A DNA stretch of 64,000 nt from Cytophagales bacterium (GCA_033765235.1 JANRIG010000019.1:143313-207312); one strand, 5' to 3'; numbered from the stretch's first letter, positions 946 to 46,572 are shown. A program made the numbers and translations. The notes: generated by a model from the letters alone, not told the origin.

Positions 946-953
946 AAAAAACG

Positions 954-4775: not shown

Positions 4776-4791
4776 TTAAACTCAAAAAAAA

Positions 4792-5334: not shown

Positions 5335-5361
5335 TCTATTCCACATAAATAATTAAAAAAA

Positions 5362-6701: not shown

Positions 6702-6704
6702 AAA

Positions 6705-6920
6705 ATGGCTACCAAAAAAAGTAAAACAAAAAAAAGAGCAACAAGTGGTAATTCTTTGAAAAAATTTGTCACTTCTGTTTATAAAAATGCAAAAGTAAGA
6801 AAAATAAAGTCTCAAATGGCAAAAATTGAACGCGCCTACAAAGCAGCGGTGAATGCTGCAAAACGTAGCTATAAAATATCAGCGAAAAAAAAGACGGTTA
6901 AAAAACGCAGAGCAGCATGA
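6705..6920 (+). CDS. highly basic Lys/Arg-rich small protein (nucleic-acid-binding candidate)
   Basis: 71 aa: MATKKSKTKKRATSG...KKKTVKKRRAA. Roughly one third of residues are K or R. Confidence 0.5.
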   Translation: MATKKSKTKKRATSGNSLKKFVTSVYKNAKVRKIKSQMAKIERAYKAAVNAAKRSYKISAKKKTVKKRRAA

Positions 6921-6921
6921 T

Positions 6922-7365
6922 ATGGGTTTGTTTTGGACGGTATCACCTACTATAAGCGATGCAGATATAGTAGCTGGGTTTGAGAAAGATATTGATAATT
7001 GGCTCTGTAGCCAATGGCGCACATATTATGAGCGTATAAAAATAAAATACGGACAAGCTAAAGCCTTAGACGTAATAAGAATTGATAGTGAGAGAATAGG
7101 GTGGTTTGCAAAATTGCATAATTGTAAATATGACTGCAATTTTATTGACTACTTCAAAAAAGAAGGGTTGGAGGGAGGAAATTTGATAAGTAAAGTCTAT
7201 TGTGCGGGCACTGATGTAGCAGGTGCTATAGGCGATACAGCAAGTGCTGTGGGCAATGTGGGCGACGTGCTAAGTGCATTAACGGATAAAAAAATACTCC
7301 TAAGTGGAGTACTAATAGCAGGTATAACATTTATATATATTAATTATGGCAAACAAAAAAGATAA
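6922..7365 (+). CDS. hypothetical protein with C-terminal TM anchor
   Basis: The track ORF starts at 6853 inside the previous gene; I prefer ATG 6922, just after that gene's stop. C-terminal segment LLSGVLIAGITFIYINY. Confidence 0.45.
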   Translation: MGLFWTVSPTISDADIVAGFEKDIDNWLCSQWRTYYERIKIKYGQAKALDVIRIDSERIGWFAKLHNCKYDCNFIDYFKKEGLEGGNLISKVYCAGTDVAGAIGDTASAVGNVGDVLSALTDKKILLSGVLIAGITFIYINYGKQKR

Positions 7366-7624
7366 CTCAGGCGGTGGAATTGATACCACTACAATACTCA
7401 TACTCGGAGCAGTAGGAGTTGGTGCATATTTCCTCATCACACAAATGGGCAAAAATAATACAGGAGCTGCAGCACCACGCGATCCCATTAGTCAAATATT
7501 GGACAGCAGCGCAGGCATAATTAATTCTATAACTAGTGGGCTGCAGCTGTTTATAAAGCCAAAGAACAGCGGAAATACAGGTGCTGCAGATTATACACCC
7601 GGCTATGGTGTGCCGATAACATAA
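7346..7624 (+). CDS. small membrane protein (1 TM)
   Basis: 92 aa with TM-like segment TTTILILGAVGVGAYFLITQ. Confidence 0.45.
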   Translation: MANKKDNSGGGIDTTTILILGAVGVGAYFLITQMGKNNTGAAAPRDPISQILDSSAGIINSITSGLQLFIKPKNSGNTGAADYTPGYGVPIT

Positions 7625-7635
7625 ATATATTAGAA

Positions 7636-7929
7636 ATGGTTGTAGAAATAATAACAATTTTAGGACTTGGATTATTGGCAAATGCCAAAAACAAAAAAGA
7701 TAGTAGCACTACCACTACTACTACTGTACAGCCGGATATTGCCAAAATAAATACATACGAAAAAAATTGGGAAAATGTATATATGAACTATGCTATGGCT
7801 AACTACCCCGCAAGTGGTATGAGTGCCTTGCACAATCGTAAAGCAGAATTGAGTAAAATAACACAAACAGTAGATACTGTGAGTGAATTACAAGCATTAA
7901 ATGAACTAATAGATAGATACGAATCATGA
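7636..7929 (+). CDS. small protein with N-terminal TM segment
   Basis: 97 aa, starting MVVEIITILGLGLLANA, followed by a poly-Thr tract. Confidence 0.45.
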   Translation: MVVEIITILGLGLLANAKNKKDSSTTTTTTVQPDIAKINTYEKNWENVYMNYAMANYPASGMSALHNRKAELSKITQTVDTVSELQALNELIDRYES

Positions 7930-8096
7930 AAAAAATATTAAGGAATTGGAAAACAAGCCTTAGCGGCTTAGCAAGTGTAATCTTAGGTATAATTAGTATT
8001 GCAGGCGGCGATGTAGGCACTGGCATAGCTACCATAGTGAGCGGTGTAGGTTTAGTGGCTGCTAAAGACTCAGACGTAACAGGTACAGCGCAATAA
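7926..8096 (+). CDS. holin-like small membrane protein (below ORF-track size cut-off)
   Basis: My own translation gives 56 aa: MKKILRNWKTSLSGLASVILGIISIAGGDVGTGIATIVSGVGLVAAKDSDVTGTAQ. ATGA overlap upstream and TAATG overlap with the lysin gene downstream. Confidence 0.45.
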   Translation: MKKILRNWKTSLSGLASVILGIISIAGGDVGTGIATIVSGVGLVAAKDSDVTGTAQ

Positions 8097-8698
8097 TGGC
8101 AAATTTTGATATTGCAATTGTAGAAATTTTTAAGAATGAGGGAGGCTACCAAAATCATCCAAGTGATAGAGGTAATTATAACTCATTAGGTGAAAATGTA
8201 GGCACAAATTACGGCATAAGCGCAAAAACGTATGAGGGGTATATAAACAGACCGCCTACAGCCGATGATATGCGCAATATGACTATCTCAACGGCTAAGA
8301 CTATATACAAACGGAGCTATTGGGATGCTTACAAATTGGGCAGCATAAATGACCAATTCATTGCCTCGCACATCTTGGATTTGTTTGTGAACCACAGCCC
8401 TAAAGCAGCTGCAGAAATTGCACAGAAAGCTATCGTAAAAACTCCTCCTTTTTTCACCAAAGTAGATGGCATATTTGGGCCAAAAACAATAGCCACAATA
8501 AACCAGATAGCAAGTAATGGTAAGGCAAGTGAGCTTAACACTAATATAGTAAACGAGCGTAAATTATATTATAATAGTTTGGGAAATTTGAGCTTTTTGG
8601 ACGGCTGGACAAATAGAGCTCATTCATGGGGAGAGTACGCAAATATATTAGTACCGGTAATACCAACTATTGCCATGTTTTTTTTTTGTCATACATAA
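8096..8698 (+). CDS. GH108-family N-acetylmuramidase-like lysin with PG_binding_3-like domain
   Basis: FKNEGGYQNHPSDRG...NYGIS is the EGGY block. It also carries YWD, VDGIFGPKTIATINQ and GWTNRAHSW. The C-terminal tail is hydrophobic. Confidence 0.8.
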   Translation: MANFDIAIVEIFKNEGGYQNHPSDRGNYNSLGENVGTNYGISAKTYEGYINRPPTADDMRNMTISTAKTIYKRSYWDAYKLGSINDQFIASHILDLFVNHSPKAAAEIAQKAIVKTPPFFTKVDGIFGPKTIATINQIASNGKASELNTNIVNERKLYYNSLGNLSFLDGWTNRAHSWGEYANILVPVIPTIAMFFFCHT

Positions 8699-8707
8699 CT
8701 TATAAAT

Positions 8708-9208
8708 ATGCCGGGAGTAGGAGTATTTGAGATTGAATATAAGCGCAATGTTTACGTAGATGCTAATGCATTCATACCGGCGCAATCATCACCCGCGGTG
8801 CCGGGTACATCAGAAGATGGTTCTTTCGGAGTTAACTGGGACTACATGGGCTATGAGCCCTTAGTCAATAGCGCAGCATGGTGCAAGGTCAAAATGAACG
8901 AAACGGCGCAGCAATTATATATAAAATTGTTCTACGAGACGGAGGGTTTGGCAGGTGATGTTTACTTGCTATTTAAGAATATCTTTGTAGCTCCTGATGG
9001 AGGATTTGGACAAATCCCTCAGGTGACTGAGGTGCCTCTTCTAGACATGAGTCCTAACGCCTCTGTACAAAGCGTGAGCTTTGTTGTAAGCATTGCACAA
9101 AGCATCAGCGACAATGGTTTATTAGTATTCGCAGTAGAGCGTTTTGGCACCTACGCGGCAGATACTTACCCCGGAGTATTCAAATTTTTAGGACTTGAAA
9201 TAAAATAA
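8708..9208 (+). CDS. hypothetical beta-rich protein (spike/receptor-binding candidate)
   Basis: 166 aa, no TM segment, no family recognised. Confidence 0.45.
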   Translation: MPGVGVFEIEYKRNVYVDANAFIPAQSSPAVPGTSEDGSFGVNWDYMGYEPLVNSAAWCKVKMNETAQQLYIKLFYETEGLAGDVYLLFKNIFVAPDGGFGQIPQVTEVPLLDMSPNASVQSVSFVVSIAQSISDNGLLVFAVERFGTYAADTYPGVFKFLGLEIK

Positions 9209-9210
9209 AT

Positions 9211-9435
9211 ATGAGCATTATAGTGCCTCTTTGTGTAATGTTTTTTTCTGCTGTTTTTTTGCCATTGCTTTATAACAGCTTCAAAATATATTTCGAAATG
9301 CCTATTTTAAAAAAAAACATAGAAGACATACAAACTGAGGTCGATATAATAAAAAATGATGTATCATTTATTCGTGAAAATATCGCCGAAATAAAAACAG
9401 CGTTGCGCTTTATAGATGATACAGAGAGCCCGTAG
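9211..9435 (+). CDS. small protein, N-terminal TM plus coiled-coil
   Basis: 74 aa, starting MSIIVPLCVMFFSAVFLPLLY, followed by a heptad-like segment. Confidence 0.45.
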   Translation: MSIIVPLCVMFFSAVFLPLLYNSFKIYFEMPILKKNIEDIQTEVDIIKNDVSFIRENIAEIKTALRFIDDTESP

Positions 9436-10177
9436 ATATACTAATATCAAAGAAGCAATATTTTTTAGCAACCTCGTGCGCCTTGCGGGCGGATATGCGC
9501 TATCTCAGGTGGAGTATTACGGCATATCCTATGCCATTGACAGATTTAGGCGAAATGGAATTTTTCAAAAACTATTGGCATACTACCCACTACTTACTCC
9601 TGAAGGACCTGGAGCATCAAAAAATATAATATCTGCAAGTTACGCATTATCATTTACAGGTCCGTTTACCTATGGTAATGGCGTGGCAGGCGATGGGCTC
9701 ACAGCTTATGCAAGCGGAGGAATAACTCCGGCACTCTTACTGTCGGTTAATAATACCACACTTGGTTTTTTTACAAAAGCCACAACTTATGAAGCCTGTA
9801 ACGACATGGGTATGCATTTTTTTGACATAAGTGCATGGGGGATATTTGGAGCGACAACGCTAAATAGCGCGTACAGTAATCCCAATTCCTTTAACATTGC
9901 AATTGCATCGCCTCAGGGGAGTAATGTGTGTACTGTAGATGGTGCCAATGTGTATGGAGTTAAAGACGGAATAACTGTATATACTGCCGCCGCGGCGGCA
10001 GGATCATTTGTGCCAGATGAATTATTTATTTTTGGCTATAACTTCTTTGGCGCTCCGTCGCAACTTAGCAGCCGTACATATCTGTCCTACTACATAGGTA
10101 ATGGACTCACCGAAGCGCAAGCAAAAAAGATCAATAATATTGAAACCACATATAACAAAACAATAGGCAGATTATGA
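9416..10177 (+). CDS. hypothetical protein, possibly concanavalin/LamG-like jelly-roll (adhesin or capsid candidate)
   Basis: 253 aa. The C-terminal pattern LFIFGYNFFG...SRTYLSYYIGNGLTEAQAKKI resembles the end of LamG-type lectin-fold domains. Confidence 0.4.
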   Translation: MIQRARRYTNIKEAIFFSNLVRLAGGYALSQVEYYGISYAIDRFRRNGIFQKLLAYYPLLTPEGPGASKNIISASYALSFTGPFTYGNGVAGDGLTAYASGGITPALLLSVNNTTLGFFTKATTYEACNDMGMHFFDISAWGIFGATTLNSAYSNPNSFNIAIASPQGSNVCTVDGANVYGVKDGITVYTAAAAAGSFVPDELFIFGYNFFGAPSQLSSRTYLSYYIGNGLTEAQAKKINNIETTYNKTIGRL

Positions 10178-10452
10178 CAGTACTCGTAGATAATACAGGA
10201 AAAATAATAAAATATGGTGTAAGCGATGAAATTAGCAGCACTAAATTAAAAGCACTTGGTCTTACAAAAGTAGTGTACAATGATAATTTCAAAATGCCTC
10301 AGTATGATGGGGTTAAGTTTGTTGAAACGTATATAGCACCTGCGCCAATGGTTAATTACTTTGTGGTTTTGCTAAAAGAGATAATTAAAGAAACAAAAAT
10401 AGAAAACAGCGTAATATCAGATGCATTAGCAAAAATTGAAGGCAAAAAGTAA
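10174..10452 (+). CDS. hypothetical protein
   Basis: 92 aa. ATGA overlap with the previous ORF. Confidence 0.45.
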   Translation: MTVLVDNTGKIIKYGVSDEISSTKLKALGLTKVVYNDNFKMPQYDGVKFVETYIAPAPMVNYFVVLLKEIIKETKIENSVISDALAKIEGKK

Positions 10453-10529
10453 AAAAAAACTGCCAATTGAAAGCCTTTTTTTTTATTAGAAAAATATGTA
10501 TAATTGCGACTTACGCAAATACATATATC

Positions 10530-10853
10530 ATGAAAAAAACAATCTTAATATTAATTCTATTGCTGCTAAGTTGTAGCAAAAAAGAAGAAGAAATAATTAA
10601 ACCACGCTGTGAGACAGAAAAATGGGGAAGCCTTAAAATACTCAATGTTAATTCGAGTAATCCTTATTATATTTATCTTGATGGCACCTATAGAGCCACT
10701 GTAGATGGCAGAGGTACAATAACTCTTATAGAGTTAAGCACAGGCACACATACGTTATATTTAGTTCAAAAGTCAGGGTATGTATTGGCGGCTACTACCT
10801 ACTCAAGTAGTATTACTATTGCCCAGTGTAGCACAAAAGAGTATCAGTTTTAA
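10530..10853 (+). CDS. lipoprotein (last ORF of the element)
   Basis: I prefer ATG 10530. MKKTILILILLLLSCSKKEE is a lipobox-like signal with Cys. Confidence 0.55.
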   Translation: MKKTILILILLLLSCSKKEEEIIKPRCETEKWGSLKILNVNSSNPYYIYLDGTYRATVDGRGTITLIELSTGTHTLYLVQKSGYVLAATTYSSSITIAQCSTKEYQF

Positions 10854-10997
10854 GCTACCTTTAAAAGAAAAAAAAGAGTTTCCACTCACTGCATGGCAGT
10901 GATATATATGCATGAAGTAAATGACAAAATATTATTCTGCAATATCTAAAATCGAGTTGAAATTAATCAAATTTTATTAGGTTTTCCCTTCGTGTAG

Positions 10998-12183: not shown

Positions 12184-12636
12184 ATGTACATATCAGATTT
12201 TAAACTTCTTGATATACTTCGTGAAAAAATGGGCGAAGATGAAGCCCGTGCGCTCGTAGAATTTATAGAGATTAAAGTAGAAGACAAATATATTGAAGCC
12301 AAAAATGTATTTGCTACCAAAGAGGACCTCTTAAAACTTGAACTAAAAATAGTACAAGTAATACACAACAATCATTTGGAAGTACAAAAACTTATTGCAG
12401 ATACCAAGATAGAGACACAAAAAATTATTGCAGAGTCAAAAAATGACTTGCAAAAACTTATGGCAGAGTCAAAAAATGACTTGCAAAAACTTGTGGCAGA
12501 CTCAAAAAATGATTTGCAAAAACTTATTGCAGACTCTAAGTTTGAAACCATCAAGTGGCTTTTTGGATTTATATTGACCTCTACGGTAGCTATCATAGGT
12601 ACTATACTGGCCGTGATGAAAATGGGTGGCTGGTAA
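12184..12636 (+). CDS. DUF1640-like coiled-coil protein with C-terminal TM anchor and internal 11-aa repeats
   Basis: (A/V)(E/D)SKNDLQKL(M/V/I) is repeated. C-terminal segment WLFGFILTSTVAIIGTILAV. Confidence 0.6.
   Translation: MYISDFKLLDILREKMGEDEARALVEFIEIKVEDKYIEAKNVFATKEDLLKLELKIVQVIHNNHLEVQKLIADTKIETQKIIAESKNDLQKLMAESKNDLQKLVADSKNDLQKLIADSKFETIKWLFGFILTSTVAIIGTILAVMKMGGW
12397..12540 (+). repeat. In-frame 33-bp tandem repeat (about 4.4 copies) inside the coiled-coil gene
   Basis: GCAGAGTCAAAAAATGACTTGCAAAAACTTATG at 12430, 12463 and 12496. A degenerate copy lies at 12397 and a partial copy at 12529. Confidence 0.85.
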
Positions 12637-30124: not shown

Positions 30125-31756
30125 TTAATACATTCCGCCCATACCACCGCCCGGAGGCATAGCAGGTGCTTTTTCTTCTTCTTTTTCCTCTGCTATTACA
30201 GCCTCTGTAGTGAGCAGCAAGCCCGCAATAGAGGCAGCGTTTTCAAGGGCAAGCCTTGTCACTTTGGCAGGATCTATCACCCCTGCTTTCATGAGGTTTT
30301 CATATTTGTCTTCACGAGCATTGTATCCAAAGTCGTCTTTGCCTTCTTTCACTTTGCTCACTATTACAGAGGGCTCTAAGCCACAGTTTATCAGTATAGT
30401 ACGTAGAGGAGCTTCGGCAGCTATTTTTACAATGTTTAGCCCTGTTTTTTGGTCTTCATTGTCTACTTTTACTTTTTCTAAGCCTTCTACTGCACGTATA
30501 AGGGCTACACCACCACCGGGCACTACTCCTTCGGCAAGTGCGGCACGGGTAGCATGCAATGCATCATCTACACGGTCTTTTTTCTCTTTCATTTCTACCT
30601 CTGTAGCAGCACCTATGTACAATATAGCTACTCCACCTGATAGTTTGGCAAGGCGCTCTTGTAGTTTTTCTTTGTCGTAGTCCGACGTAGTTTTTTCTAT
30701 TTGCGCTTTTATTTCATTGATACGTGCGGTGATGTTGGCTTTTTTGCCTGCACCGTTTACTATTGTAGTATTATCTTTGTCTACTATCAGTTTTTCGGCA
30801 CTGCCTAAGTATTCTAAAGTAGCATTTTCAAGTTTGTATCCTTGCTCTTCAGATATTACAGTACCACCTGTGAGTATGGCTATATCTTCGAGCATGGCTT
30901 TGCGGCGGTCGCCAAAGCCCGGAGCTTTCACGGCACATATTTTGAGTGCACCGCGTATTTTGTTCACTACCAATGTGGCAAGTGCTTCGCCTTCTACTTC
31001 TTCGGCTATGATAAGTAGTGGTTTACCTGTTTGGGCTACTGCTTCTAATATAGGAAGTAGCTCTTTCATAGATGATATTTTTTTGTCATATATGAGTAAA
31101 TAGGCTCTTTCCAAATCTGCTTCCATGCTTTCAGTGTTGGTCACAAAGTATGGCGATAGATATCCACGGTCAAACTGCATACCTTCTACAGTTTTTACTT
31201 CGTCAGAAGTGCCTTTGGCTTCTTCTACTGTGATTACGCCATCTTTGCCTACTTTTTCCATGGCAGACGATATCATTTCGCCAATTTCATGGTCATTATT
31301 GGCAGATATTGTAGCTACTTGTTTTATTTCGTCATTGCCTTTGATGGCTTTGGCTTGTTTTTTGAGGTTTGCTACTACTTCGGCCACAGCTTTGTCTATA
31401 CCTCTTTTGAGGTCCATAGGGTTAGCACCGGCAGCTACATTTTTAAGACCTGCGGTGAATATAGCTTGAGCCAATACAGTAGCGGTAGTAGTACCATCGC
31501 CTGCACTGTCAGCAGTTTTGGAGGCTACTTCTTTTACCAGTTGAGCTCCCATGTTTTCGATAGAGTCTTTGAGCTCTATGTCTTTGGCTACTGTCACACC
31601 ATCTTTTGTGATAGTGGGTGCACCAAATTTTTTGTCAAGTATTACGTTTTTGCCTTTGGGACCAAGGGTTACTTTCACAGCATTTGAAAGAGCATCTACT
31701 CCTTTTTTTAGTTTTTCGCGCGCATCGGCTTCGAAATGGATGTTTTTTGCAGCCAT
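30125..31756 (-). CDS. groL: Chaperonin GroEL
   Basis: [27 protein letters not shown], and a C-terminal GGMGGMY tail. Confidence 0.97.
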
Positions 31757-31805
31757 AGTTTTATGATTTATTTAAGTTAATGGTTTAATAATGAATAATA
31801 TATAT

Positions 31806-32081
31806 TTAGATTACAGCAAAGATATCAGACTCACGCATGATGAGGTATTCTTTGCCTTCGATGGTGATTTCGGTACCTGAGTATTTTCCATACAGTACTT
31901 CATCACCTACTTTTACGGTAATAGGCTCGTCTTTTTTGCCTGTGCCTACTGCCACTACTTTACCTTTTTGGGGTTTTTCTTTTGCAGTATCGGGTATGTA
32001 CAGCCCTGATGCTGTTTTGGTTTCTGCTGCAGCCGGTTCTACCAGAACTCTGTCCGCCAAAGGTTTTACTTTGATTGCCAT
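31806..32081 (-). CDS. groS: Co-chaperonin GroES
   Basis: [12 protein letters not shown]...GKVVAVG...[10 protein letters not shown]. Confidence 0.95.
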
Positions 32082-32343
32082 AATATTAAGAATTGGTTTA
32101 TTGTATATTAAATTTTAAATATATTTATTGAAAAACTTTATTCTATAAATACATTTATTGTGCCAATGAAGTTAAATGTTGAATTTATGACAAAATTGCA
32201 GAAGGCATGGGCATATTGTCAGTAAATGAATAACCATACCTCGTTCTGTGTCATTGTAGTGAGAAATAAACATTTCAGAACTCTTCATTAAAAATTTGTA
32301 AAAATCCAAATCGGTCTTTATTTGTATCATAATGGAGGACTGC

Positions 32344-32450
32344 ACGGATATACTAGGCTATTTTTCAAACATGTGCGCAAAACTACGTCCTGCAAATCTC
32401 GTTCTTAAACGAGACCCAATCTTGCATAAATACCATGTTATGTGAGGGCA
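32344..32450 (-). repeat. Cassette-flanking repeat, copy B (T module plus truncated P module)
   Basis: The minus strand reads TGCCCTCACATAACATGGTATTTATG, then hairpin TCTCGTT/AACGAGA, then GTAGTTTTGCGCACATGTTTGAAAAATAGCCTAGTATATCCGT. This matches 40611-40707. Confidence 0.7.
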
Positions 32451-32453
32451 GTC

Positions 32454-33020
32454 TTATTTTACTTCCGATTCTTTGGGTTTAAATGTCTTTTTATTGTTCA
32501 TTATTTTCACCGTGTCTCCACTTGGTTTCAAGACAAACAGTCCTTTGCTTTCAGCATATTTGTCTACTCCTTCACCAATTATCATTCCAGCTACACCAGC
32601 CAAAAGGGTTTTGCCTTGAATTCCAACCATTGGGTGGTCTTGAATTTTTGTTAAACGAATAAGATGCTCATCTACATGCTCCGTTCTTATTGTGTTTTTC
32701 ACTTCTATGGCAATTGCATATTTAGAGTTATAGATTAATATGTCAACTTCATATATAAACTCATTTTTGTGGTCTTTTTGAACATAATGATTTGTAATGG
32801 CGTGAACAGGTATTCCCCAATTGTCAAACTTGTTAATCAAGTCCGCTCGTACTTGTTCTTCTGCAAAGCGACCTAAAGTGTCGCCTAAGTCTGCAATTTG
32901 CTTATTTGTTTGAGCGAAACGTTTATCTAGCTCTTTTGATACTTTTTCAAATTTCTGGTCGAAGCGTCTATCAGTTTCAGCAAAAAGTTCTAATACATGT
33001 TCATATGTCAATTCAGCCAT
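32454..33020 (-). CDS. PD-(D/E)xK nuclease-fold protein with N-terminal coiled-coil
   Basis: EVDILIYNSKYAIAIEVK supplies a D...ExK motif. 188 aa. The N-terminus is helical and charged. Confidence 0.55.
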   Translation of the reverse strand: MAELTYEHVLELFAETDRRFDQKFEKVSKELDKRFAQTNKQIADLGDTLGRFAEEQVRADLINKFDNWGIPVHAITNHYVQKDHKNEFIYEVDILIYNSKYAIAIEVKNTIRTEHVDEHLIRLTKIQDHPMVGIQGKTLLAGVAGMIIGEGVDKYAESKGLFVLKPSGDTVKIMNNKKTFKPKESEVK

Positions 33021-33095
33021 TTTTCATATTTTTACAAATATAGGATTTTAGGTTTGATTTTCAAACTTTCGGACTGGCTTCAATTGCTCTCACTT

Positions 33096-33204
33096 AACGG
33101 CTCACCTATTTGCCAAGTGGGTGACCAAAGAGGCTCCATGCACAAATATAGAAGTAAACACTGAGATATACAAGGCTCTTTTTCACACATTAGCGCAAAT
33201 GTAG
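33096..33204 (-). repeat. Cassette-flanking repeat, copy A (full 109-bp P module)
   Basis: The minus strand reads CTACATTTGCGCTAATGTGTGAAAAAGAGCCTTGTATATCTCAGTGTTTACTTCTATATTTGTGCATGGAGCCTCTTTGGTCACCCACTTGGCAAATAGGTGAGCCGTT. It aligns over its full length with 40663-40771. Confidence 0.75.
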
Positions 33205-33456
33205 CTTAAATGCAATTGCGCCTATTTCGCATTTAGTGGTAACCATTTGTGCTGCTGCTGCTGTATTAATTCTTGTTCTGTTTATATTCTTTGATTTTAT
33301 ACCTTACAACAATACATAATCTGTTTAATATTTCCAAATTATCAAACGGACATTTCATGCCACCCGGTATTTTGCTTGTATTGTGGGTGTAAAGATGATG
33401 ATTGATGTTTTTTTATATCACAAAATGATATTGATTTGCAGCAAATATATTGTAGT

Positions 33457-33975
33457 ATGAATAAAATCATAAAAACATCCCTCATATTTGGTACTGTTTT
33501 TGGCATAGTAGGCTTTGTATGGTTTTTAGGTGTATATTTTGCTGGTCACAATGCATTTTACAGCTTTGCACAAAAGCTGTCATTAATCATGATGGGCGCA
33601 GCCACACTATGGGCAGTGTGGATGTATAGAAGTAGTAATGAAGGTAATCTTACTTTTGGCGAAGGTGCACTCACAGGTATATCCATGAACATATTGGCAG
33701 CGTTGATAACCTGCTCATTAATATACATTTATACCTATTATATAAATCCTGATATGGTACAGCTACACATATTGACCCTTAAGCAATACTTGGCAGCCAA
33801 TAAAAAAGCACTCATAGACGGCTCTAATGAGACTACCTATAAAGGTACTCTGAAAGCGGTGAACGAGGTCACATCATACACGCTTGCTTTGGATGCATTT
33901 ATTTGGAAAGTGGTAGAAGGGTTTATGTTTTCATTTTTAATTTCGGTAGCTTTGAGGCGTAAAAACATAGTATGA
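33457..33975 (+). CDS. DUF4199-like membrane protein
   Basis: About 4 TM segments. The N-terminus MNKIIKTSLIFGTVFGIVGFVWF is typical of DUF4199. I prefer ATG 33457. Confidence 0.55.
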   Translation: MNKIIKTSLIFGTVFGIVGFVWFLGVYFAGHNAFYSFAQKLSLIMMGAATLWAVWMYRSSNEGNLTFGEGALTGISMNILAALITCSLIYIYTYYINPDMVQLHILTLKQYLAANKKALIDGSNETTYKGTLKAVNEVTSYTLALDAFIWKVVEGFMFSFLISVALRRKNIV

Positions 33976-34925
33976 ACCTGAGTATTGTAGTGCCTTTGTA
34001 CAACGAGGAAGAGTCGCTCCCCGAGTTAGTGGCATGGATACATAAAGTATGTGACCGCCAATATGAATATGAAATAATATTGGTAGACGATGGCAGCAGC
34101 GATGGCTCATGGGCTGTGATACAAAGATTATCAAATAGTTATACTATGCTCAAAGCCATACGCTTTTTGCGCAACTATGGCAAGTCTGCTGCGCTCAACG
34201 AGGGCTTTAAACTGGCAAAAGGCGAGGTAGTAGTGACCATGGATGCCGACCTGCAAGACAGTCCTGATGAAATACCTGCATTGTACGACATGATAAAAGT
34301 ACAAAACTATGATTTGGTATCGGGCTGGAAACAAAAACGACATGACCCACTCACTAAGACCATACCAACCAAACTCTTTAATGCAGTGACCAGAACTATG
34401 TCGGGCATACAGCTGCACGACTTCAACTGTGGGCTCAAAGCCTATCACAAAAAAGTAGTGAAAAATATAGAAGTATATGGCGAAATGCACCGCTACATCC
34501 CGGTGATAGCCAAGTGGAGCGGTTTCACCAAAATAGGCGAAAAGCCTGTGGCGCATCAAGCGCGCAAATATGGCTATTCCAAATTTGGGTTCGATAGGTT
34601 TGTAAACGGTTTTTTGGACTTAATATCAATATCATTCATCACACGGTTTAGGCGCAAGCCTATGCATTTTTTCGGCACCTTGGGCATGTGTGCATTCTTA
34701 GCAGGATTTGGGGTGGCATTGTGGCTCATAGCTGAGAAGCAGTACAATATATATCATGGCTTGCGTGTGCGAGATGTGACAGAGCAACCTTTGTTTTTTT
34801 TGGCATTGGTAGCTTTGCTTGCAGGTATACAGTTTTTTTTGGCAGGCTATCTGGGCGAAATGGTAAATGTGAGCAGCAATCGCAAAGGCCAAGAGTACCT
34901 CATAGACCAAAGCATAGGGGTGTGA
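33972..34925 (+). CDS. Family 2 glycosyltransferase (polyprenol-phosphate sugar synthase-like)
   Basis: LSIVVPLYNEEESL, ILVDDGSSDGS and MDADLQD, with C-terminal TM segments. Confidence 0.85.
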   Translation: MNLSIVVPLYNEEESLPELVAWIHKVCDRQYEYEIILVDDGSSDGSWAVIQRLSNSYTMLKAIRFLRNYGKSAALNEGFKLAKGEVVVTMDADLQDSPDEIPALYDMIKVQNYDLVSGWKQKRHDPLTKTIPTKLFNAVTRTMSGIQLHDFNCGLKAYHKKVVKNIEVYGEMHRYIPVIAKWSGFTKIGEKPVAHQARKYGYSKFGFDRFVNGFLDLISISFITRFRRKPMHFFGTLGMCAFLAGFGVALWLIAEKQYNIYHGLRVRDVTEQPLFFLALVALLAGIQFFLAGYLGEMVNVSSNRKGQEYLIDQSIGV

Positions 34926-35008
34926 AAAAAGTTATTTTTTATATGGAAATATAATCACTTATTAATAGGATTGTATTATCATAAGATCAATATCTCAAAT
35001 ATCTATTT

Positions 35009-38000
35009 CTACTCCTCGTGCACATCATCCAAGGGCACATTTGAGGTATTGAGAGATATGTCTATGCCATTGTCTTTCACAAAGTTGCACCATGTGCAAT
35101 CTTCTTTGCCACAACCTGTATAAAAGTTCATTTCCATTATATTTTTATAGGTTTCCAATATCTGTGCAGTCACTATATCTATATCTTCTTTGGTGATTTC
35201 CATACCGTGTTTCACTATGTTTCCATCTTTGTTTTTTTCTATAAAGTCCATTTCGCCGTGCACCATTTTGCGGTTGAGCTTTTTGTCTTCGTCTATCAAT
35301 ATTTTATAAAATACAAGCTGCCTGTAATAGTCGCCACCGTGTATATCTTGATGGTCACTATCTATAGAGGCATCCGGCTTTGGTCTTTGAAATTTCTTTT
35401 TCAAATGGTCATGGTCAGATTTGCCTGTTTTGTAGTCCACTACATTCACGGTGTTGTTACTCAATAGTTCTATTTTATCAATCACACCTGTGATGGGCAC
35501 ACCGTGATACTCAGTTTGGTGTATTCTGTATTCGGTGTACACATTTTTGTTCCAATTTTCGCGCCTTGCAGCCAGGTATTCTGGCAGTATAAGGTGGCCA
35601 TATTCGCTGTAGCGGTAATATTCTTTTTCGTTAAACCCCTCATGCTCTTGATGCATGGCTTGGTCAAAAAGGGCAATAAATGATGCAGTATTACCAAATT
35701 CATTATTTTTGTCTTTCAGCATTTGTACAAAATATTTTTCGAGTGTGAGGTGCACCGCTCGTCCAAAAGCAGTACCTGCATTTTTGGCAGATGGCACTTT
35801 GATAATGGCTTCGTAATAAAATTTCAATGGACATTTCAAGTACTTACTCATATTGGTCACGCTGAGTTTGTAGTCTTTGAGTATATTTTTGATATACAGG
35901 CTGTTGAGCTGCTCCACAGTAGGTTTGTAAGTGGTGAGTTGCGATGCTGCCACAGCCAGTACTTTGTCATCGGGCATAGCTATGGTATGCACTGGTGCTT
36001 TGGTAGTGAGTGCTTCTGTCACATATTTTGACCTTTGTAAGGTGTTTTTGGAGGTGCTTTCGCCTGTTTTTTGTTGCAGCCATGAGATATTCAGTTTTTG
36101 TTTGGCGCGTGTCATGGCCACATAAAATAGTCTTCTGTTTTCGGCTATTTTATTGTCTTTTTGATTATCTTTATTGGTGTCCAATATTTCATCTGTGATG
36201 TGTGCATGGTATATTGGAAACAGGTTAAAGCTGTTAGCACGGTTTTGTTTGTCTTCCCAAGTAGCAGCGTTGCAGCGTATCATATACACTGTGTCAAACT
36301 CTAATCCTTTGGCAGAGTGTGCGGTGATAAAGTGTAGTCCGTGAGGTGTTTGTAATATTTTTTCAAAAGGTATCATTATTCCATGCGTTTGCATTTTGTC
36401 CAATGTATCCAGCAGTTTTGTTACAGTATATCTTGGGTTGCGCTTAGCTTCTGATTTTATAAAATCAAAAAACACGGTGAGTATAGGTACCCATTCGGCT
36501 ATGTATTGGGGTAAAAGTGCATAAGCATATATGCCCGTCTGCTGCAGCATTTCCTCAAACAATACTTCTACGGTAGTATTCATTTTTTTGGATGTAAGCC
36601 TCTCTGATGTATTTATAAATTTTTGTATTTTTCCGCTACAAGTAAGTCCTATTTTCAGATGTAAGATATGATTGTTCATCACCTCTCTCAGCTGTATTTT
36701 GTGCTCGGCAGCATATCTTGCCATGAGCAATATCTCTTGGGTGGGTATGCCAAATACTTCAAAAAACATTAACTCAAAAAGTATATCATCATGCTTTTGT
36801 AATTTAGTTTCGGCATCTATATATTTAAGCAGGAGTATTATTTTTTTTATCAAATTATGCTCCAATATATCTGTTTTCATTCTGGAGTTGTAGGGCAATT
36901 GGTGCATGTCGCACAGGGTCATGAGTGCATGTGCATCTGCATGGTTGTGATAAATGACAGCTATTGTAGACAAATTTGTGCCTTGCCTTTTTGCCTCCTG
37001 TATTTGCTCCAATATATGTGCGGTTTCGTGCCATTGGTTTAGATATTCAATGAATGTTGGGGTGGGTTCATCATGTGTTTTTAGTACATTGGCTGCCAAT
37101 GTTTTATTTATTTCAAAATTATGTTTTTTGAATAGTTCTTTCAAGTCTTTGTTGTGTATGAGTCTATCATCAGTGTCATGCACTATCACTGCAGAAGCAG
37201 CATCAAGTATAGGTTGCACAGATCTATAGTTTTGCGTGAGCACTATACATTTGAGGTGTTTCAAATATTGCTCCACAAAAGCTACCATACGGGTGTTTTC
37301 AGCACCTTGAAAACTATATATGCACTGGTCATCGTCACCTACCACAAATAGGTCAGGATTGTCATGCCAGTGCTTTGCAAGCAGGTATAGCAAGTGGCTT
37401 TGCGCGCCATTGGTATCTTGAAACTCATCTGCCAATATGTATTGGTACTGTTGTTGATATCTGCTAAGTAGTTGCTCATGATTTTCAAAGGCATTTATTA
37501 CATTGCGCAGCATATCATTAAAGTCATATCTATTGTATTTTTTTAATAATTCTTGATATTCATTGTATTTTAATATGGCAGATTTGAGCTTGATGATACG
37601 CTCAGTTTCTTTGAGTATGTTGTTTTGATTTGGTCGCCCGCCAAGACGCATCCCATGTTCATCTTTTTTATGATAGTTGGGTGCATAATGAAATGCTTTA
37701 AAATTTGGTAATTCTGCCAAATATTTATCGCATTGTGTCAATAAAGTATGTGGGTGATAGTTTTCAGTTTTTATATCAGAAAATAGACTTTTGAGCGAAG
37801 TCATGCTCGAATATATGTCTCCAGTATATTTTTTGAGAGGGTCGTCTATGGTTAATTTTTCTATGATTTCAATGATGATTTCAGTAATGTCAAGGTCTGA
37901 AGCAGGTTGTGTATTGTAGTTATTGGCAAAGTAATAATTGTTTTCTTGTATTACTTTATTTGAAAATGAATGAAAAGTATGTATCTCTACATCATAGGCA

Positions 38001-38272
38001 GCAGTACCTATGAATTTTATCAATCGCTCACGCATGGCTATGCGTCCCGCATCTGTATAGGTAAGGCATAGTATATTTTGCGGAGCTATATCAGTTTCTA
38101 TGAGTATATTGGCAATACGTAGTGCCAGTATTTGGGTTTTGCCGGTGCCGGGTCCTGCCAGCACCATCACAGGTCCATCTATGCTGCGTATGGCAGCTTG
38201 CTGGTGTATATTGCAATCTGCAACAGCTTCTGCAAATGTTTTTATAAAGTCATCTACGGGGATTTTCATCAT
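35009..38272 (-). CDS. UvrD/PcrA-type helicase fused to C-terminal Cas4/AddB-like PD-(D/E)xK nuclease with Cys cluster
   Basis: VLAGPGTGKT (Walker A), ILADEFQDTN and YVAMTRAK. The C-terminus has KCPLKFYYE ... VDYKTGK ... CGKEDCTWCNF, a Cys cluster resembling the iron-sulfur motif of that nuclease type. Confidence 0.8.
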   Translation of the reverse strand: MMKIPVDDFIKTFAEAVADCNIHQQAAIRSIDGPVMVLAGPGTGKTQILALRIANILIETDIAPQNILCLTYTDAGRIAMRERLIKFIGTAAYDVEIHTFHSFSNKVIQENNYYFANNYNTQPASDLDITEIIIEIIEKLTIDDPLKKYTGDIYSSMTSLKSLFSDIKTENYHPHTLLTQCDKYLAELPNFKAFHYAPNYHKKDEHGMRLGGRPNQNNILKETERIIKLKSAILKYNEYQELLKKYNRYDFNDMLRNVINAFENHEQLLSRYQQQYQYILADEFQDTNGAQSHLLYLLAKHWHDNPDLFVVGDDDQCIYSFQGAENTRMVAFVEQYLKHLKCIVLTQNYRSVQPILDAASAVIVHDTDDRLIHNKDLKELFKKHNFEINKTLAANVLKTHDEPTPTFIEYLNQWHETAHILEQIQEAKRQGTNLSTIAVIYHNHADAHALMTLCDMHQLPYNSRMKTDILEHNLIKKIILLLKYIDAETKLQKHDDILFELMFFEVFGIPTQEILLMARYAAEHKIQLREVMNNHILHLKIGLTCSGKIQKFINTSERLTSKKMNTTVEVLFEEMLQQTGIYAYALLPQYIAEWVPILTVFFDFIKSEAKRNPRYTVTKLLDTLDKMQTHGIMIPFEKILQTPHGLHFITAHSAKGLEFDTVYMIRCNAATWEDKQNRANSFNLFPIYHAHITDEILDTNKDNQKDNKIAENRRLFYVAMTRAKQKLNISWLQQKTGESTSKNTLQRSKYVTEALTTKAPVHTIAMPDDKVLAVAASQLTTYKPTVEQLNSLYIKNILKDYKLSVTNMSKYLKCPLKFYYEAIIKVPSAKNAGTAFGRAVHLTLEKYFVQMLKDKNNEFGNTASFIALFDQAMHQEHEGFNEKEYYRYSEYGHLILPEYLAARRENWNKNVYTEYRIHQTEYHGVPITGVIDKIELLSNNTVNVVDYKTGKSDHDHLKKKFQRPKPDASIDSDHQDIHGGDYYRQLVFYKILIDEDKKLNRKMVHGEMDFIEKNKDGNIVKHGMEITKEDIDIVTAQILETYKNIMEMNFYTGCGKEDCTWCNFVKDNGIDISLNTSNVPLDDVHEE

Positions 38273-38367
38273 ATTAATGGCTTACATGTGGCATGTGGAT
38301 ATATTTTTGGGCAAGCTATGGCATATTTATATATCTTTATACACAATTCATTTATCTAATATTAAAT

Positions 38368-39552
38368 ATGGAAGGTCTTAATATCATTACATGTCCTAAG
38401 TGCAAACACCAATTTAATGCCGAAAAAGCATTGACCGACGAGGTAGAGCTCAGGTTGCGCACAGAGTATAACCAAAGATATAAAGGTGAAGTTGCCAAAA
38501 AAGAAGCAGAAATGCAACTTAGGTTGCAAGAATCTCAAAAAGAACTGGCTGATAAACAAAAAGAAACCGAAAAATTGCTCAAAGACAAAATAAAACAAGA
38601 TTTTGAGTTGGAGCTAAAATCTCAAAAAGAGGAGCTTGAGCAGCGCAAAAACGAAATATATGCGCTCAAAACCAAAGAGATAGAGCTCATGAAAAAAGAG
38701 CAGGCACTCACTGAGCAGTCTAGATTAGCAGCCATAGAGTTTGACAAAAAAATGCTCGAAGAAAGTAAAAAGCTGGAAGAAAATATAAGAAAGAAGATAG
38801 AAGAGCAATCTGTGCTTGCTCTCAAAGAAAAAGATATACTGATAGAGCAGCTAAAAAAACACATGGATGAGATGAACAAAAAAGCCGGTCAAGGCTCCAT
38901 GCAGCTGCAAGGCGAAGCTCAAGAGATGGTGCTGAAAGATATATTAAAAAGCGCATTCCCACTGGATATGATAAGTGACGTGGCTGTGGGGGTAAAAGGT
39001 GCAGACCTGGTGCAGCATGTAAAAAATAATATGGGCAAAGATTGCGGCACTATAGTGTATGAAAGCAAGCGTACTAAGCACTTTGCAGCAGAATGGATTG
39101 ATAAATTAAAAAATGACTTGCGTGCCCAAAAAGCCAATGTAGCCCTGTTGGTGACCGAGACTATGCCCAAAGATATGGAAAAATTTGGCGAAAAAGACGG
39201 TGTATGGATATGTACTTTTGCAGAAGTAGTAGCACTTGCTACCGTGCTAAGGCACTCACTAATAGACATATATGAGGTGCGTATGTCGCAAGATAATAAA
39301 GGTGAAAAGATGCATATGTTGTATGACTTTCTTACGGGTACAGAGTTCAAATCACATATTGAGGCTATAGCTGAGGGCTTCATAGCCATGCAGCAAAGTT
39401 TGCAAAAAGAGAAATTGATAGCACAAAAAAACTGGGCAGAGCGCGAAAAAATGACAGAAAAGGTATTAGTAAATATGATGAATATGTATGGTGGTATCAA
39501 AGGTATAGCAGGCAATGCGGTGCCTGAGCTTAAGCTATTGGAAGCGGAATAG
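38368..39552 (+). CDS. DUF2130-like protein (zinc-ribbon, long coiled-coil, C-terminal nuclease-like domain)
   Basis: ITCPKCKHQFNAEKAL, then about 180 aa of charged coiled-coil, then GADLVQHV...IVYESKRTK (a D...ExK-like motif). I prefer ATG 38368. Confidence 0.6.
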   Translation: MEGLNIITCPKCKHQFNAEKALTDEVELRLRTEYNQRYKGEVAKKEAEMQLRLQESQKELADKQKETEKLLKDKIKQDFELELKSQKEELEQRKNEIYALKTKEIELMKKEQALTEQSRLAAIEFDKKMLEESKKLEENIRKKIEEQSVLALKEKDILIEQLKKHMDEMNKKAGQGSMQLQGEAQEMVLKDILKSAFPLDMISDVAVGVKGADLVQHVKNNMGKDCGTIVYESKRTKHFAAEWIDKLKNDLRAQKANVALLVTETMPKDMEKFGEKDGVWICTFAEVVALATVLRHSLIDIYEVRMSQDNKGEKMHMLYDFLTGTEFKSHIEAIAEGFIAMQQSLQKEKLIAQKNWAEREKMTEKVLVNMMNMYGGIKGIAGNAVPELKLLEAE

Positions 39553-39562: not shown

Positions 39563-39632
39563 TGGATTGCGCTCCTGAGCGAAAAATAGCCTTGTATATA
39601 TCCGAGTTTACTTCTATATTTGTGCATGGAGT
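39563..39632 (+). repeat. Cassette-flanking repeat, copy C (P module fused to the XRE gene start)
   Basis: GATTGCGCTCCTGAGCGAAAAATAGCCTTGTATATATCCGAGTTTACTTCTATATTTGTGCATGGAGT. It contains CTTG, a 20-nt spacer, then TATATTTG (39615-39622), 3 nt before the ATG. Confidence 0.75.
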
Positions 39633-39949
39633 TTAAAGAAATAAAAACCTATTCGATTGCCGAAATGAAATACAAGTATATTGGCAAAGTTGGGACTACT
39701 TACCGTGATGAGTATGAATATGAACTGCGCATGGACGTGTTGGGCAAAATGATTAAATCTGCAAGATAAGAACGCCATCTGACACAGGAAGAGCTTGGCA
39801 AACTTGTAGGTGTACAAAAAGCTCAAATTTATAAACTTGAAAGCAGTGCCAACAGTGCAACAATTGACTCGGTTTTGAAAGTTTTCAAAGCATTAAAAGC
39901 GGAGATTAATTTTAACGTAAAACTTGAAAAAAATTTTTTATTAAAATAG
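39626..39949 (+). pseudogene. XRE-family HTH (antitoxin-like) gene interrupted by an in-frame TAA
   Basis: My own translation gives MEFKEIKTYSIAEMKYKYIGKVGTTYRDEYEYELRMDVLGKMIKSAR, then a stop at 39767-39769, then ERHLTQEELGKLVGVQKAQIYKLESSANSATIDSVLKVFKALKAEINFNVKL.... The HTH lies after the stop. Confidence 0.7.
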
Positions 39950-40019: not shown

Positions 40020-40484
40020 GTGAAGCAAAGAATTTACATCGATACATCTGTTTTCGGAGGACACTTTGACGAAGAGTTCAAGGAACATACTATTCCGCTT
40101 TTTGAAAGAATAAAATCTGGAGAATTTATAATACTATACTCGACAGTTACACAAAACGAACTTGAAAATGCACCTGAGAAAGTAAAAGAGCTTGTAAAAA
40201 GCCTAAGAGCCGACTTGACTGAATTTATCGAAACAACAGATGAAGCGGTTGACTTGGCGACTGATTACATTGCAGAAAAAGTAGTAGGAAAAACAAGTTA
40301 TGCCGACTGCATACACATTGCATTGGCGACCATTAATCGGGCAGACTTTTTAGTGAGTTGGAACTTCAAACATATTGTAAACATTGAAAGAATAAGGGGT
40401 TATAATTCAATCAATATTAAAAACGGATACAAACAATTAGAAATACGTTCACCAAGAGAATTTGAAAAATATGAAAACGACTGA
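40020..40484 (+). CDS. PIN-domain-like protein (VapC-like toxin candidate)
   Basis: GTG start. IYIDTSVF is an N-terminal acidic PIN block. It also has NELEN, YADCIHIALA and SWNFKHI. 154 aa. Confidence 0.5.
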   Translation: MKQRIYIDTSVFGGHFDEEFKEHTIPLFERIKSGEFIILYSTVTQNELENAPEKVKELVKSLRADLTEFIETTDEAVDLATDYIAEKVVGKTSYADCIHIALATINRADFLVSWNFKHIVNIERIRGYNSINIKNGYKQLEIRSPREFEKYEND

Positions 40485-40623
40485 AAAAACATTTGACGCT
40501 GTAAAATTTATGCGTCATGAGAGAGACAAATTAAGTGATAAATTGTCCAAAATGACAAAAACTGAAATTTTAGAATATTTCAAAAATAGTAAAAGGGAGG
40601 TTACAATTAAGCCCTGTGCATAA
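40471..40623 (+). CDS. small 50-aa protein overlapping the PIN gene end (partner/antitoxin candidate; below ORF-track cut-off)
   Basis: My own translation gives MKTTEKTFDAVKFMRHERDKLSDKLSKMTKTEILEYFKNSKREVTIKPCA. It overlaps the PIN gene by 14 nt. Confidence 0.45.
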   Translation: MKTTEKTFDAVKFMRHERDKLSDKLSKMTKTEILEYFKNSKREVTIKPCA

Positions 40624-40771
40624 CATGGTATTTATGAATGAAGGGGTGTAGTTTATTAGGTAGTAGTTTTGCGCTCATGTATAAAAAATAGCCTTGTATA
40701 TATCCGTATTTACTTCTATATTTGTACATAGAGTCTCTTTTGTCACCCACATCGCCAAACCCCAAACCGTT
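40611..40771 (+). repeat. Cassette-flanking repeat, copy D (T module 40611-40640 plus full 109-bp P module 40663-40771)
   Basis: GCCCTGTGCATAACATGGTATTTATGAATG ... GTAGTTTTGCGCTCATGTATAAAAAATAGCCTTGTATATATCCGTATTTACTTCTATATTTGTACATAGAGTCTCTTTTGTCACCCACATCGCCAAACCCCAAACCGTT. Confidence 0.75.
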
Positions 40772-41571: not shown

Positions 41572-42600
41572 ATGAAATATAAACTACTTGGCTCAAGCGG
41601 CTTAAGAGTGTCTGAAATATGCCTTGGCACTATGACATTTGGCACCGAATGGGGCTATGGCGCAGACAAAAACATAAGCAAAGAAATATTTGACTATTAT
41701 CTGTCACAAGGTGGCAACTTCATAGATACTGCCAATAGATATACCGAGGGCACCTCTGAAATTTATCTGGGCGAATTTGTAAAACAATCGGGTGTTAGAG
41801 ACCAATTAGTAATAGCTACAAAATACTCATTGGTCACACAGTTTGGCAAGATAAACGATGGGGGCAACCACCGCAAAAACTTAGTACAATCTGTAGAAGG
41901 CAGTCTCAAAAGATTGCAACTTGACTATATAGACCTGCTATACCTCCATGCATGGGACTTTACAACACCATACGATGAACTGATGCGCGCACTCGACAAC
42001 TTAGTGAGTGCCGGCAAAGTGTTATATATAGGCATATCAGACACTCCTGCATGGATTGTGGCATCTTGCAATACCATTGCCCGGCTTAGAGGTTGGTCAA
42101 GATTTATAGCGTTGCAAATTGAGTACAGCCTCATCACCCGCGATGCAGAGCGCGACCTTATACCTATGGCTTTGCATGAAGGGCTTGGTGTAGTAGCTTG
42201 GGCACCACTGGCCGGAGGAGCACTCACAGGCAAATATCTGAACTTACAAAATAATGACCCTAAGCGCCTCAAAGAAGGCAGCAAACGTATAAACGAGCGC
42301 AATACACTCATAGCCAAGGCAGTGACAGATATGGCAAATGACACAGGCTACGCTGCAGCACACATAGCACTGGCATGGATTATGCAAAAAGGCAAAGCAT
42401 TTTTTCCATTGGTGGGCGCACGCAATGTAGCTCAAATACAAGACAATATTCGAGCTTCTGAAATAATACTTTCAGAGAGTCAAATAAAAATATTAGATGA
42501 GGTAAGTGGTATAGAACTGGGCTTTCCGCATGATTTTCTAAAAAGCGATGCCGTAAAAAATGTACTCTTTGGCGGATTGAAAGATAATATCAATTTGTAA
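41572..42600 (+). CDS. Aldo/keto reductase
   Basis: LGSSGLRVSEICLGTMTFG, IDTANRYTEG, DLLYLHAWD and PLVGAR. Confidence 0.85.
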   Translation: MKYKLLGSSGLRVSEICLGTMTFGTEWGYGADKNISKEIFDYYLSQGGNFIDTANRYTEGTSEIYLGEFVKQSGVRDQLVIATKYSLVTQFGKINDGGNHRKNLVQSVEGSLKRLQLDYIDLLYLHAWDFTTPYDELMRALDNLVSAGKVLYIGISDTPAWIVASCNTIARLRGWSRFIALQIEYSLITRDAERDLIPMALHEGLGVVAWAPLAGGALTGKYLNLQNNDPKRLKEGSKRINERNTLIAKAVTDMANDTGYAAAHIALAWIMQKGKAFFPLVGARNVAQIQDNIRASEIILSESQIKILDEVSGIELGFPHDFLKSDAVKNVLFGGLKDNINL

Positions 42601-46477: not shown

Positions 46478-46572
46478 AACATTGAAATTATATACTTAAT
46501 ACTATTGATTTTCAATGTTACTATACATTTAACATTGAAATTATATGCTTATTTGTTTGGATTATCAATGTT
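46478..46572. repeat. Two 42-bp direct repeat units, each bounded by inverted AACATTGA/TCAATGTT; operator-like
   Basis: The units lie at 46478-46519 and 46531-46572, with about 34 of 42 positions identical by my count. TACTTTTG (46579-46586) and ATG 46591 follow. Confidence 0.7.

Follow-up and report, generated by a model that had tools for sequence, protein, structure and literature searches.

An intergenic repeat with a putative promoter at the borders of two accessory gene islands in a Cytophagales genome

Introduction

How do small accessory genes come to lie among the housekeeping genes of a bacterial chromosome, and what does it mean when related copies of one short sequence stand before several of them? 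The question is raised by a 64-kb stretch of DNA (37% G+C; hereafter the window) on a 214,711-bp contig of a metagenome-assembled genome (MAG) named "Cytophagales bacterium", whose genes carry NW207_ locus tags. An intergenic repeat of up to 109 nucleotides (nt), here called P, precedes a gene for a 188-amino-acid (aa) nuclease, and a shorter element, T, follows the stop codon of that gene. The original prediction took P and T for separate modules, read the order P, gene, T, P as the trace of a gene cassette inserted into or beside a pre-existing P site, and knew of no described Bacteroidota cassette system with such a repeat. All of the elements it had listed (P1, T, a hairpin and a truncated P) are present at the coordinates given below. 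It had overlooked a further P copy (P4), a second T, the continuity of T with P, the nuclease gene's own promoter and the clustering of all copies within 8.4 kb. The explanation tentatively preferred here, at a probability of about 0.45, is that P is a lineage-specific, promoter-bearing intergenic repeat of the kind catalogued as putative mobile promoters (PMPs), and that it marks old or decayed cassette-type insertions.

P Is a Repeat Tied to Gene Borders

The copies of P and T, the promoter motifs (those within P located by pattern scan) and the accessory genes and open reading frames (ORFs) beside them are as follows.

32344..32386, minus strand: P2, a degenerate P copy (GTAGTTTTGCGCACATGTTTGAAAAATAGCCTAGTATATCCGT), about 260 nt upstream of groES
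32397..32414, minus strand: hairpin TCTCGTT-TAAG-AACGAGA (7 bp), between T and P2
32425..32450, minus strand: T copy 2 (TGCCCTCACATAACATGGTATTTATG), beginning 3 nt past the nuclease stop codon
32454..33020, minus strand: nuclease gene NW207_04960, 188 aa; long helix at the N-terminus, PD-(D/E)xK domain at the C-terminus
33035..33064, minus strand: the nuclease gene's own promoter motif, TTG-N19-TATATTTG, its -7 box starting 22 nt before the ATG
33096..33204, minus strand: P1, a full P copy between the divergently oriented DUF4199 and nuclease genes, with no T upstream
33143..33173, minus strand: Bacteroidota-type promoter motif TTG-N20-TATATTTG, followed by ATGGAG, in P1
39554..39632, plus strand: P4, a P copy without T, whose ATGGAG holds the start codon of the XRE-HTH gene
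39592-39622, plus strand: TTG-N20-TATATTTG in P4
39626..39949, plus strand: XRE-family HTH gene, antitoxin-like (HTH_3, E = 2.4e-7), with an in-frame TAA at 39767-39769
40020..40484, plus strand: PIN-domain protein gene, toxin-like, 154 aa (Pfam PIN, E = 9.8e-6)
40471..40623, plus strand: 50-aa ORF with its TAA stop inside T; L040, a Logan contig, has a gene call for it
40611..40636, plus strand: T copy 3, directly upstream of P3
40663..40771, plus strand: P3, a full P copy upstream of the 187-aa gene
40694-40724, plus strand: TTG-N20-TATATTTG in P3
40791..41354, plus strand: gene for a 187-aa protein that matches no family and whose N-terminus resembles a signal peptide

P1 and P3 align without a gap over 109 bp, with 85 of the 109 positions identical (78%), which bears out the identity of roughly four-fifths estimated earlier by eye, and a core of 91 nt is 84.6% identical. 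P4 agrees with P1 at 57 of 65 positions (87.7% over 65 nt) and with P3 at 86.4% over 66 nt, and over their common stretches all pairs of copies show 82-88% identity. Only the first ~44 nt of P are kept in P2, which has lost the -7 box. A 32-nt pattern drawn from P was observed twice, as against no match in 100 shuffles. The copies derive from a common sequence and not from convergence.

P is also tied to gene boundaries. Each of the four copies is co-oriented with the gene that follows it, and the homology of P4 begins 2 nt past the stop codon of the DUF2130 gene. The left edge of the repeat (TTGCGC) is identical in three different, unrelated contexts; at the right, the edges at 33096 and 40771 correspond to one another and those at 39632 and 32344 do not. 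The genes downstream (those for the nuclease, groES, the XRE-HTH protein and the 187-aa secreted protein) are mutually unrelated, with Pfam families that differ or are absent, and a BLASTP comparison of the nuclease with the 187-aa protein yields E = 37. Two ways of accounting for the repeat, both foreseen in the original prediction, do not describe it. One would make P the conserved upstream region of a paralogous gene family, which is excluded, since four unrelated genes lie downstream and homologues of the nuclease lack P and T; nor is P scattered without regard to gene boundaries, standing as it does at gene borders and in the direction of the neighboring gene.

The first group, on the minus strand, opens with P1 and the nuclease gene, continues with T, the hairpin and P2, and after some 260 nt reaches groES. 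The second group, on the plus strand, consists of P4, the interrupted XRE-HTH gene, the PIN gene, the 50-aa ORF, T, P3 and the 187-aa gene. These are two islands of small accessory genes with P copies at their borders and core genes between them; P1 faces the opposite way to P3 and P4, which lie 6.3-7.5 kb off. The inserts in these islands measure 0.8-1.2 kb and encode no integrase. The second island may hold a type II toxin-antitoxin pair; its HTH gene is interrupted by the in-frame stop and lies 70 nt from the PIN gene, which has a TAnnTTTG motif of its own. The in-frame stop of the XRE gene is also present in independent Logan assemblies, contig L040 among them, and is therefore not an assembly error.

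A Putative Outward Promoter Within P

The original prediction had seen a good match to the Bacteroidota -33/-7 promoter consensus, followed by ATGGAG, in P, and the motif TTG-N20-TATATTTG is indeed there. A TAnnTTTG motif stands within 120 nt upstream of 19 of the 61 ORFs of the window, as against ~0.145 motifs expected per 120 nt, a frequency that indicates the usual promoter type in this genome. The only such motif upstream of the 187-aa gene is the one held by P3. Judged from sequence, it is plausible that P carries an outward promoter aimed at the downstream gene. P3 would then be the promoter of the 187-aa gene, P4 would give rise to a near-leaderless XRE transcript, and P2 would be dead as a promoter. 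P1 would be a second promoter, upstream of that belonging to the nuclease gene itself. This proximal promoter region is conserved upstream of a nuclease homologue, 79% identical, in another MAG (GCA_027488865.1, JAIYAU010000041.1; L106 below), with an alignment score of 68 that none of 1000 shuffles equaled. Because the nuclease gene has its own conserved promoter, P1 is at most an extra promoter and is not needed for expression.

A different account of the same features is that P is a shared regulatory region, either a promoter with an XRE operator or the 5' end of a small RNA or leader, conserved for its function. P4 would drive the XRE-HTH gene from inside the repeat, and P1 and P3 have ~40 nt in common after the putative transcription start, as this account would have it. 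Conservation of 65-109 nt at 78-88% identity, spacers included, far exceeds what an operator needs, and the XRE gene that would supply the regulator has an in-frame stop. No match to P was found in Rfam at either threshold, nor was a hairpin common to P1 and P3, and a purely regulatory origin of the repeat is very improbable.

T and P Form One Repeat

The view of T and P as separate modules has to be given up, as they form one contiguous repeat by alignment. Positions 32442-32344 align continuously with 40619-40707, through T, the hairpin, the linker and the left part of P, and the sole gap is one of 12 nt that removes the second hairpin arm in the T-P3 copy. From this continuity, the full form of the repeat is T-hairpin-linker-P, of ~160-175 nt. 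It occupies the whole stop-to-start gap between consecutive genes and occurs twice, after the nuclease gene and after the pair of PIN and 50-aa genes. Upstream of P1 and P4, a search for a degenerate T gave nothing significant. The hairpin at 32397-32414 was not called by a terminator scan, which, like a sigma-70 promoter scan, is uninformative for this phylum. Neither a conserved hairpin in T-P nor one common to the P1 and P3 transcripts was found. An invertible promoter or shufflon is not indicated either, there being no local inverted-repeat pair at P and no recombinase in the window.

The interval from the decayed P2 to groES contains a 49-aa ORF (MIQIKTDLDFYKFLMKSS..., 32172-32321, minus strand) that matches no family and has no gene call in the Logan contigs. 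This ORF may be what is left of a sequence that P2 formerly preceded.

Short, multi-copy, intergenic sequences with an outward promoter invite comparison with miniature inverted-repeat transposable elements (MITEs), and P or T-P could be such an element, comparable to Correia, moving by itself and carrying its promoter incidentally. P resembles Correia, ERIC and REPIN-type repeats, which can supply promoters or terminators to neighboring genes, and in other contigs palindromic elements of ~125 nt have T as their terminal inverted repeat. Those known families have defined inverted ends, and Correia elements also have target duplications, whereas P and T-P have neither: an inverted-repeat search over all four copies found no terminal inverted repeats or target-site duplications spanning the ends of P or T-P in the window. 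Furthermore, T-P folds no better than its shuffles (z = 0.2 to -1.8), the 3' ends vary and no transposase is encoded nearby. Self-movement of this type therefore receives little credence here.

Distribution of the Repeat

Within the 64 kb, a repeat search and blastn found the four P copies, all within 8.4 kb, and none elsewhere. In 185,579 species-representative genomes a first scan for P returned no match and a second returned 32, all of them chance. There was no match in JGI metagenomes, only chance matches in IMG/VR, and no similarity to plasmids or phages. A protein search with a reverse-frame ORF that spans T-P3, intended for miscalled copies elsewhere, gave no candidates.

Contigs from Logan (runs DRR729080-85) match the window at 100% identity. 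Several samples have such contigs ending at 33128-33156, inside P1, and at 40618-40646, inside T3, while the same assemblies continue through P4 and T2-P2. The copies in the window have no 31-mer in common. These breaks, together with the lack of a shared 31-mer, indirectly imply additional P1-like and T3-like copies, with exact stretches of ~30 nt, in the genome of the same organism or in the metagenome.

These observations bear on the possibility that the layout records local history only, with an ancestral T-P region copied by segmental duplication, inversion and deletion within 8 kb, neither mobile nor tied to gene gain. The confinement of all four copies to 8.4 kb would be expected from such a history, as would the way in which the two arrays mirror each other about the core block between them; the T-linker-P junction, the same in both T-bearing copies, must have arisen once. 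Set against this, only T and P are duplicated, with unrelated genes between and beside the copies, the contig breaks imply copies elsewhere, and the left edge of P is common to three unrelated contexts. A history of purely local rearrangement is accordingly rather doubtful.

The Nuclease Gene and Its Relatives

The assignment of a nuclease fold to the 188-aa protein stands. Among 32 homologues, D93 and E106 never vary and K108 is near-invariant (at least 90%). In the AlphaFold model (pLDDT 83), a long helix at the N-terminus is followed by an alpha/beta domain at the C-terminus, and the best-scoring Foldseek matches in the PDB, with probabilities of 0.97-1.0, are R.BspD6I, AF1548, Can2, NucC and NucS, which share the restriction-endonuclease fold. 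The protein has no match in Pfam-A or NCBIfam, and some of its homologues are named DUF3782 by NCBI. With sequence conservation, model and structural matches in agreement, it belongs to the PD-(D/E)xK nuclease superfamily.

At least three nuclease paralogues are present in the MAG, NW207_02320 and NW207_03905 being among those named, and homologues elsewhere are single genes amid housekeeping genes in differing contexts. P and T are absent at all homologues and paralogues retrieved, namely the homologues in L106 and in a further genome, L110, and a paralogue of the same organism (L004-L006). P and T are thus not part of the nuclease gene. Nuclease genes without the flanking repeats had been named beforehand as a finding that would speak against insertion at P, and this finding is now made in part.

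The nuclease unit shared by the window and L106 begins ~10 nt past the right edge of P1 (CCG|TTAAGT) and stops at the left edge of T. The L106 homologue has weak flanking direct repeats of its own upstream region (3841-3971 and 4687-4804), whose spacing of 833-846 nt (p = 0.036) is near the distance of 818 nt between the starts of P1 and P2 in the window. No remnant of a second nuclease gene, as a tandem-duplication model would have it, was found downstream of P2.

Such boundaries would fit an active site-specific system that has not been described, in which circles of cargo plus T-linker-P integrate at P by means of a recombinase encoded elsewhere. Both arrays show an asymmetry like that of attL and attR, the upstream P being without T and the downstream P with it. 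The constant left edge of P, the limits of the L106-shared unit, the weak direct repeats of the L106 homologue and the fit of the P1 right edge to the integron core GTTRRRY are all in keeping with it. Integrated elements flanked by attL and attR likewise consist of an insert between co-oriented repeats with an element-derived sequence, here T, on one side only, but the present inserts are small and without integrase, and their flanking repeats are ~85% identical rather than identical. The copies have diverged by ~14% and P2 has decayed, so that any insertion event must be old. The copies of P do not end alike on the right, the 64 kb encode no recombinase, neither an empty site nor a circular junction was retrieved, and P occurs in no other genome or metagenome searched. 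A system still at work is on these grounds clearly unlikely. The insertion of a cassette at P, as originally proposed, retains the support of the Campbell-type layout and of the L106 boundaries, and is weakened by the lack of a recombinase in the window and by the homologues without P or T.

T and Integron-Type Palindromes

The 18-mer of T matched 14 JGI contigs, mostly by chance. In three contigs T is the left, ORF-proximal arm of palindromes of ~125 nt: two in L051 (JGI contig Ga0066648_10003271, 1-7949), one in L053 and one in L118 (an IMG/VR contig). Over 23 consecutive nt, T copy 2 agrees fully with the left palindrome arm in L051, which has two such sites, and T copy 3 is 93.5% identical over 31 nt to the left arm of that in L053. 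The palindromes have 20-bp arms (GGTATTTATGCARYGGTGGC and GCCACCRCTGCATAAATACC) with compensatory changes between contigs, and two of the three elements folded do so strongly (z = -4.9 and -4.8).

In L051, the T-type elements and three other imperfect palindromes lie 3' of stop codons among small unrelated ORFs (HNH, nitroreductase, HxlR, DUF3997, DoxX), with an IS3-family fragment interrupting the array. The five palindromes, of 125-190 nt, are bounded by YTAAC...GTTAGS boxes such as AGCTAAC...GTTAGGC, and L051 is probably an integron cassette array. The earlier statement that no cassette system with this repeat has been described therefore needs qualifying, as T resembles one arm of attC-like palindromes.

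The comparison with integrons, which takes in both attC sites and ORF-less cassettes with promoter activity, yields resemblances and differences. As in integron cassettes, the accessory genes of the window are small, unrelated and co-oriented, and a conserved element comes right after the stop codon. Reminiscent of attC are a candidate RYYYAAC-like box in T, followed by an arm matching the L051 palindromes, and the right edge of P1, which reads G|TTAAGT. The T boxes, CACATAAC and GCATAAC, are each one mismatch from RYYYAAC. Unlike attC, T lacks a second arm and so forms no hairpin, and the element in the window includes a putative promoter and shows far more conservation than attC sites have in common. 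The window contains no imperfect inverted repeats forming an attC hairpin, no IntI or attI and no attC array, and its islands lie between core genes rather than in an array. The only complete integron reported in Bacteroidetes proper is that of Salinibacter ruber, an earlier survey there having found In0 elements only (PMC9024848).

Some observations would extend the likeness into P. As far boxes one might consider GTTTTGC, which stands at the left edge of P, and GTTAAGT, at the right edge of P1; the right edge of P3 (GTTCCTG) is unfit. A duplex of T2 with the right end of P1 reaches -10.2 kcal/mol (p = 0.035), and when aligned with the L118 palindrome the same right end falls into register with its right arm (p = 0.02, uncorrected for eight tests); both are weak leads, as is the presence of T at the downstream P only in each of the two arrays. 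The duplex and the alignment hint faintly that the right end of P might be the missing second palindrome arm, and there is a similarly faint resemblance of the left edge of P to the GTTGTGC box of T-type elements. Carried to its conclusion, this would make T-linker-P the recombination site of an integron-like Cytophagales cassette system, a site that itself holds an outward promoter. T would be the R''-L'' arm, the promoter would lie in the central region, and the right end of P (CCACTTGGCAAATAGG-TGAGCC-G|TTAAGT) would be the L'-spacer-R' arm, with cassettes beginning exactly there. Each inserted cassette would then bring a promoter for its downstream neighbor. So elaborate a site is quite improbable. 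In its simpler form, the resemblance of T to one arm of these palindromes points to an ancestry in integron-like cassettes.

The Preferred Explanation

PMPs have been defined as sequences of at least 50 nt and at least 80% identity upstream of non-homologous genes in one genome, with no known mobile element attached and by a spreading route that is unknown (Matus-Garcia, Nijveen, van Passel 2012; PMC3575422). P agrees with this definition in its pairwise identities (84.6% over 91 nt, 87.7% over 65 nt and 86.4% over 66 nt) and in its non-homologous downstream genes, and it is not a known insertion sequence, tRNA or RNA family, having no Rfam or plasmid match and no transposase nearby. PMPs are a catalogue class and not a mechanism. 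P differs from them in adding a T module at the 3' end of the upstream gene, in bracketing accessory genes and in having a Bacteroidota -33/-7 promoter.

As to how the layout might have arisen, small DNA units with T-linker-P would have recombined with a resident P. Upstream, such an event would leave a P that lacks T; downstream, it would leave T-P. T would be the leftover arm of an integron-attC-type palindromic element, and as such would make the islands look like decayed cassette-type insertions. The P copies would since have diverged to ~86% identity, with no sign of present activity.

Several observations weigh against this explanation. Regarding mobility, no Pfam domain of a recombinase, transposase or Phage_integrase was found in any ORF of at least 100 aa in the 64-kb window, no circular junction or excised form was found, and no empty site was found, the nearest relatives (75% identity of the GT2 protein) not being syntenic. 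The visible P copies are confined to 8.4 kb, further copies being inferred solely from contig breaks, and P1, P3 and P4 are mutually equidistant (56-57 of 65 positions identical in their shared 65-nt core), so that no order of events can be derived from them. The outward promoter has its motif as its sole basis; the 13 variable columns of P avoid the -33/-7 boxes, but not significantly (p = 0.07). The link between T and attC comes from four elements in three contigs of unknown taxonomy, and the L053 element is without the GTTRRRY box. Lastly, a covariance model of the palindromes (R1) found no complete palindrome in the window (best score 13.6 bits, E = 0.16), with 10.3 bits (E = 1.2) at T-P3. 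In the absence of both a significant R1 match and folding above that of shuffles in the two T-P regions (z = 0.23 and -1.79), the window holds solo arms only.

Genomic Setting

The region around the P copies is made up of housekeeping-type genes, as identified with Pfam.

30125-32081, minus strand: groEL and groES
33436-33975: DUF4199 gene
33972-34925: GT2 glycosyltransferase gene
35009-38272, minus strand: UvrD/PD-(D/E)xK helicase-nuclease gene
38293-39552: DUF2130 gene
33436-39552: core block DUF4199-GT2-UvrD/PD-(D/E)xK-DUF2130, between the two outward-facing P arrays
41572-42600: aldo/keto reductase gene

Other features of the window lie apart from the repeat. A run of co-oriented small ORFs at 296-10900 (plus strand), most of them without a family match, includes a Rep_trans rolling-circle replication initiator (1021-2151), a nucleotidyltransferase (2346-2663) and a GH108/PG_binding_3 endolysin-like protein (8096-8698), and looks like an integrated small phage or plasmid-like element. 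Within the ORF at 12184-12636, positions 12385-12549 hold 4-5 tandem copies of a 33-nt unit (CAAAAACTTATTGCAGA...AAAAATGACTTG) that encodes an 11-residue protein repeat. Just 5' of an AAA_14/DUF4143 ATPase gene at 46591, a 42-nt palindrome-ended sequence, AACATTGAAA...TTTTCAATGTT, occurs in two neighboring copies (46478-46572) that are 53 nt apart and share 83% identity. A long imperfect hairpin at 59274-59371 (minus strand; GCCACAT...TGGCAATGGTG / CACCAGTGCCAATGTGGC) is a weak R1 match (12.2 bits, E = 0.36) and is unrelated to T in sequence.

Significance

If the promoters are active, P would be a clear Bacteroidota case of one promoter sequence reused before unrelated genes, and this reuse would fall exactly where small accessory genes, namely a nuclease and a toxin-antitoxin-like pair, entered a core region. 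The similarity between T and attC-like palindromes provides a lead on how single-gene islands arrive in a phylum with few reported integrons.

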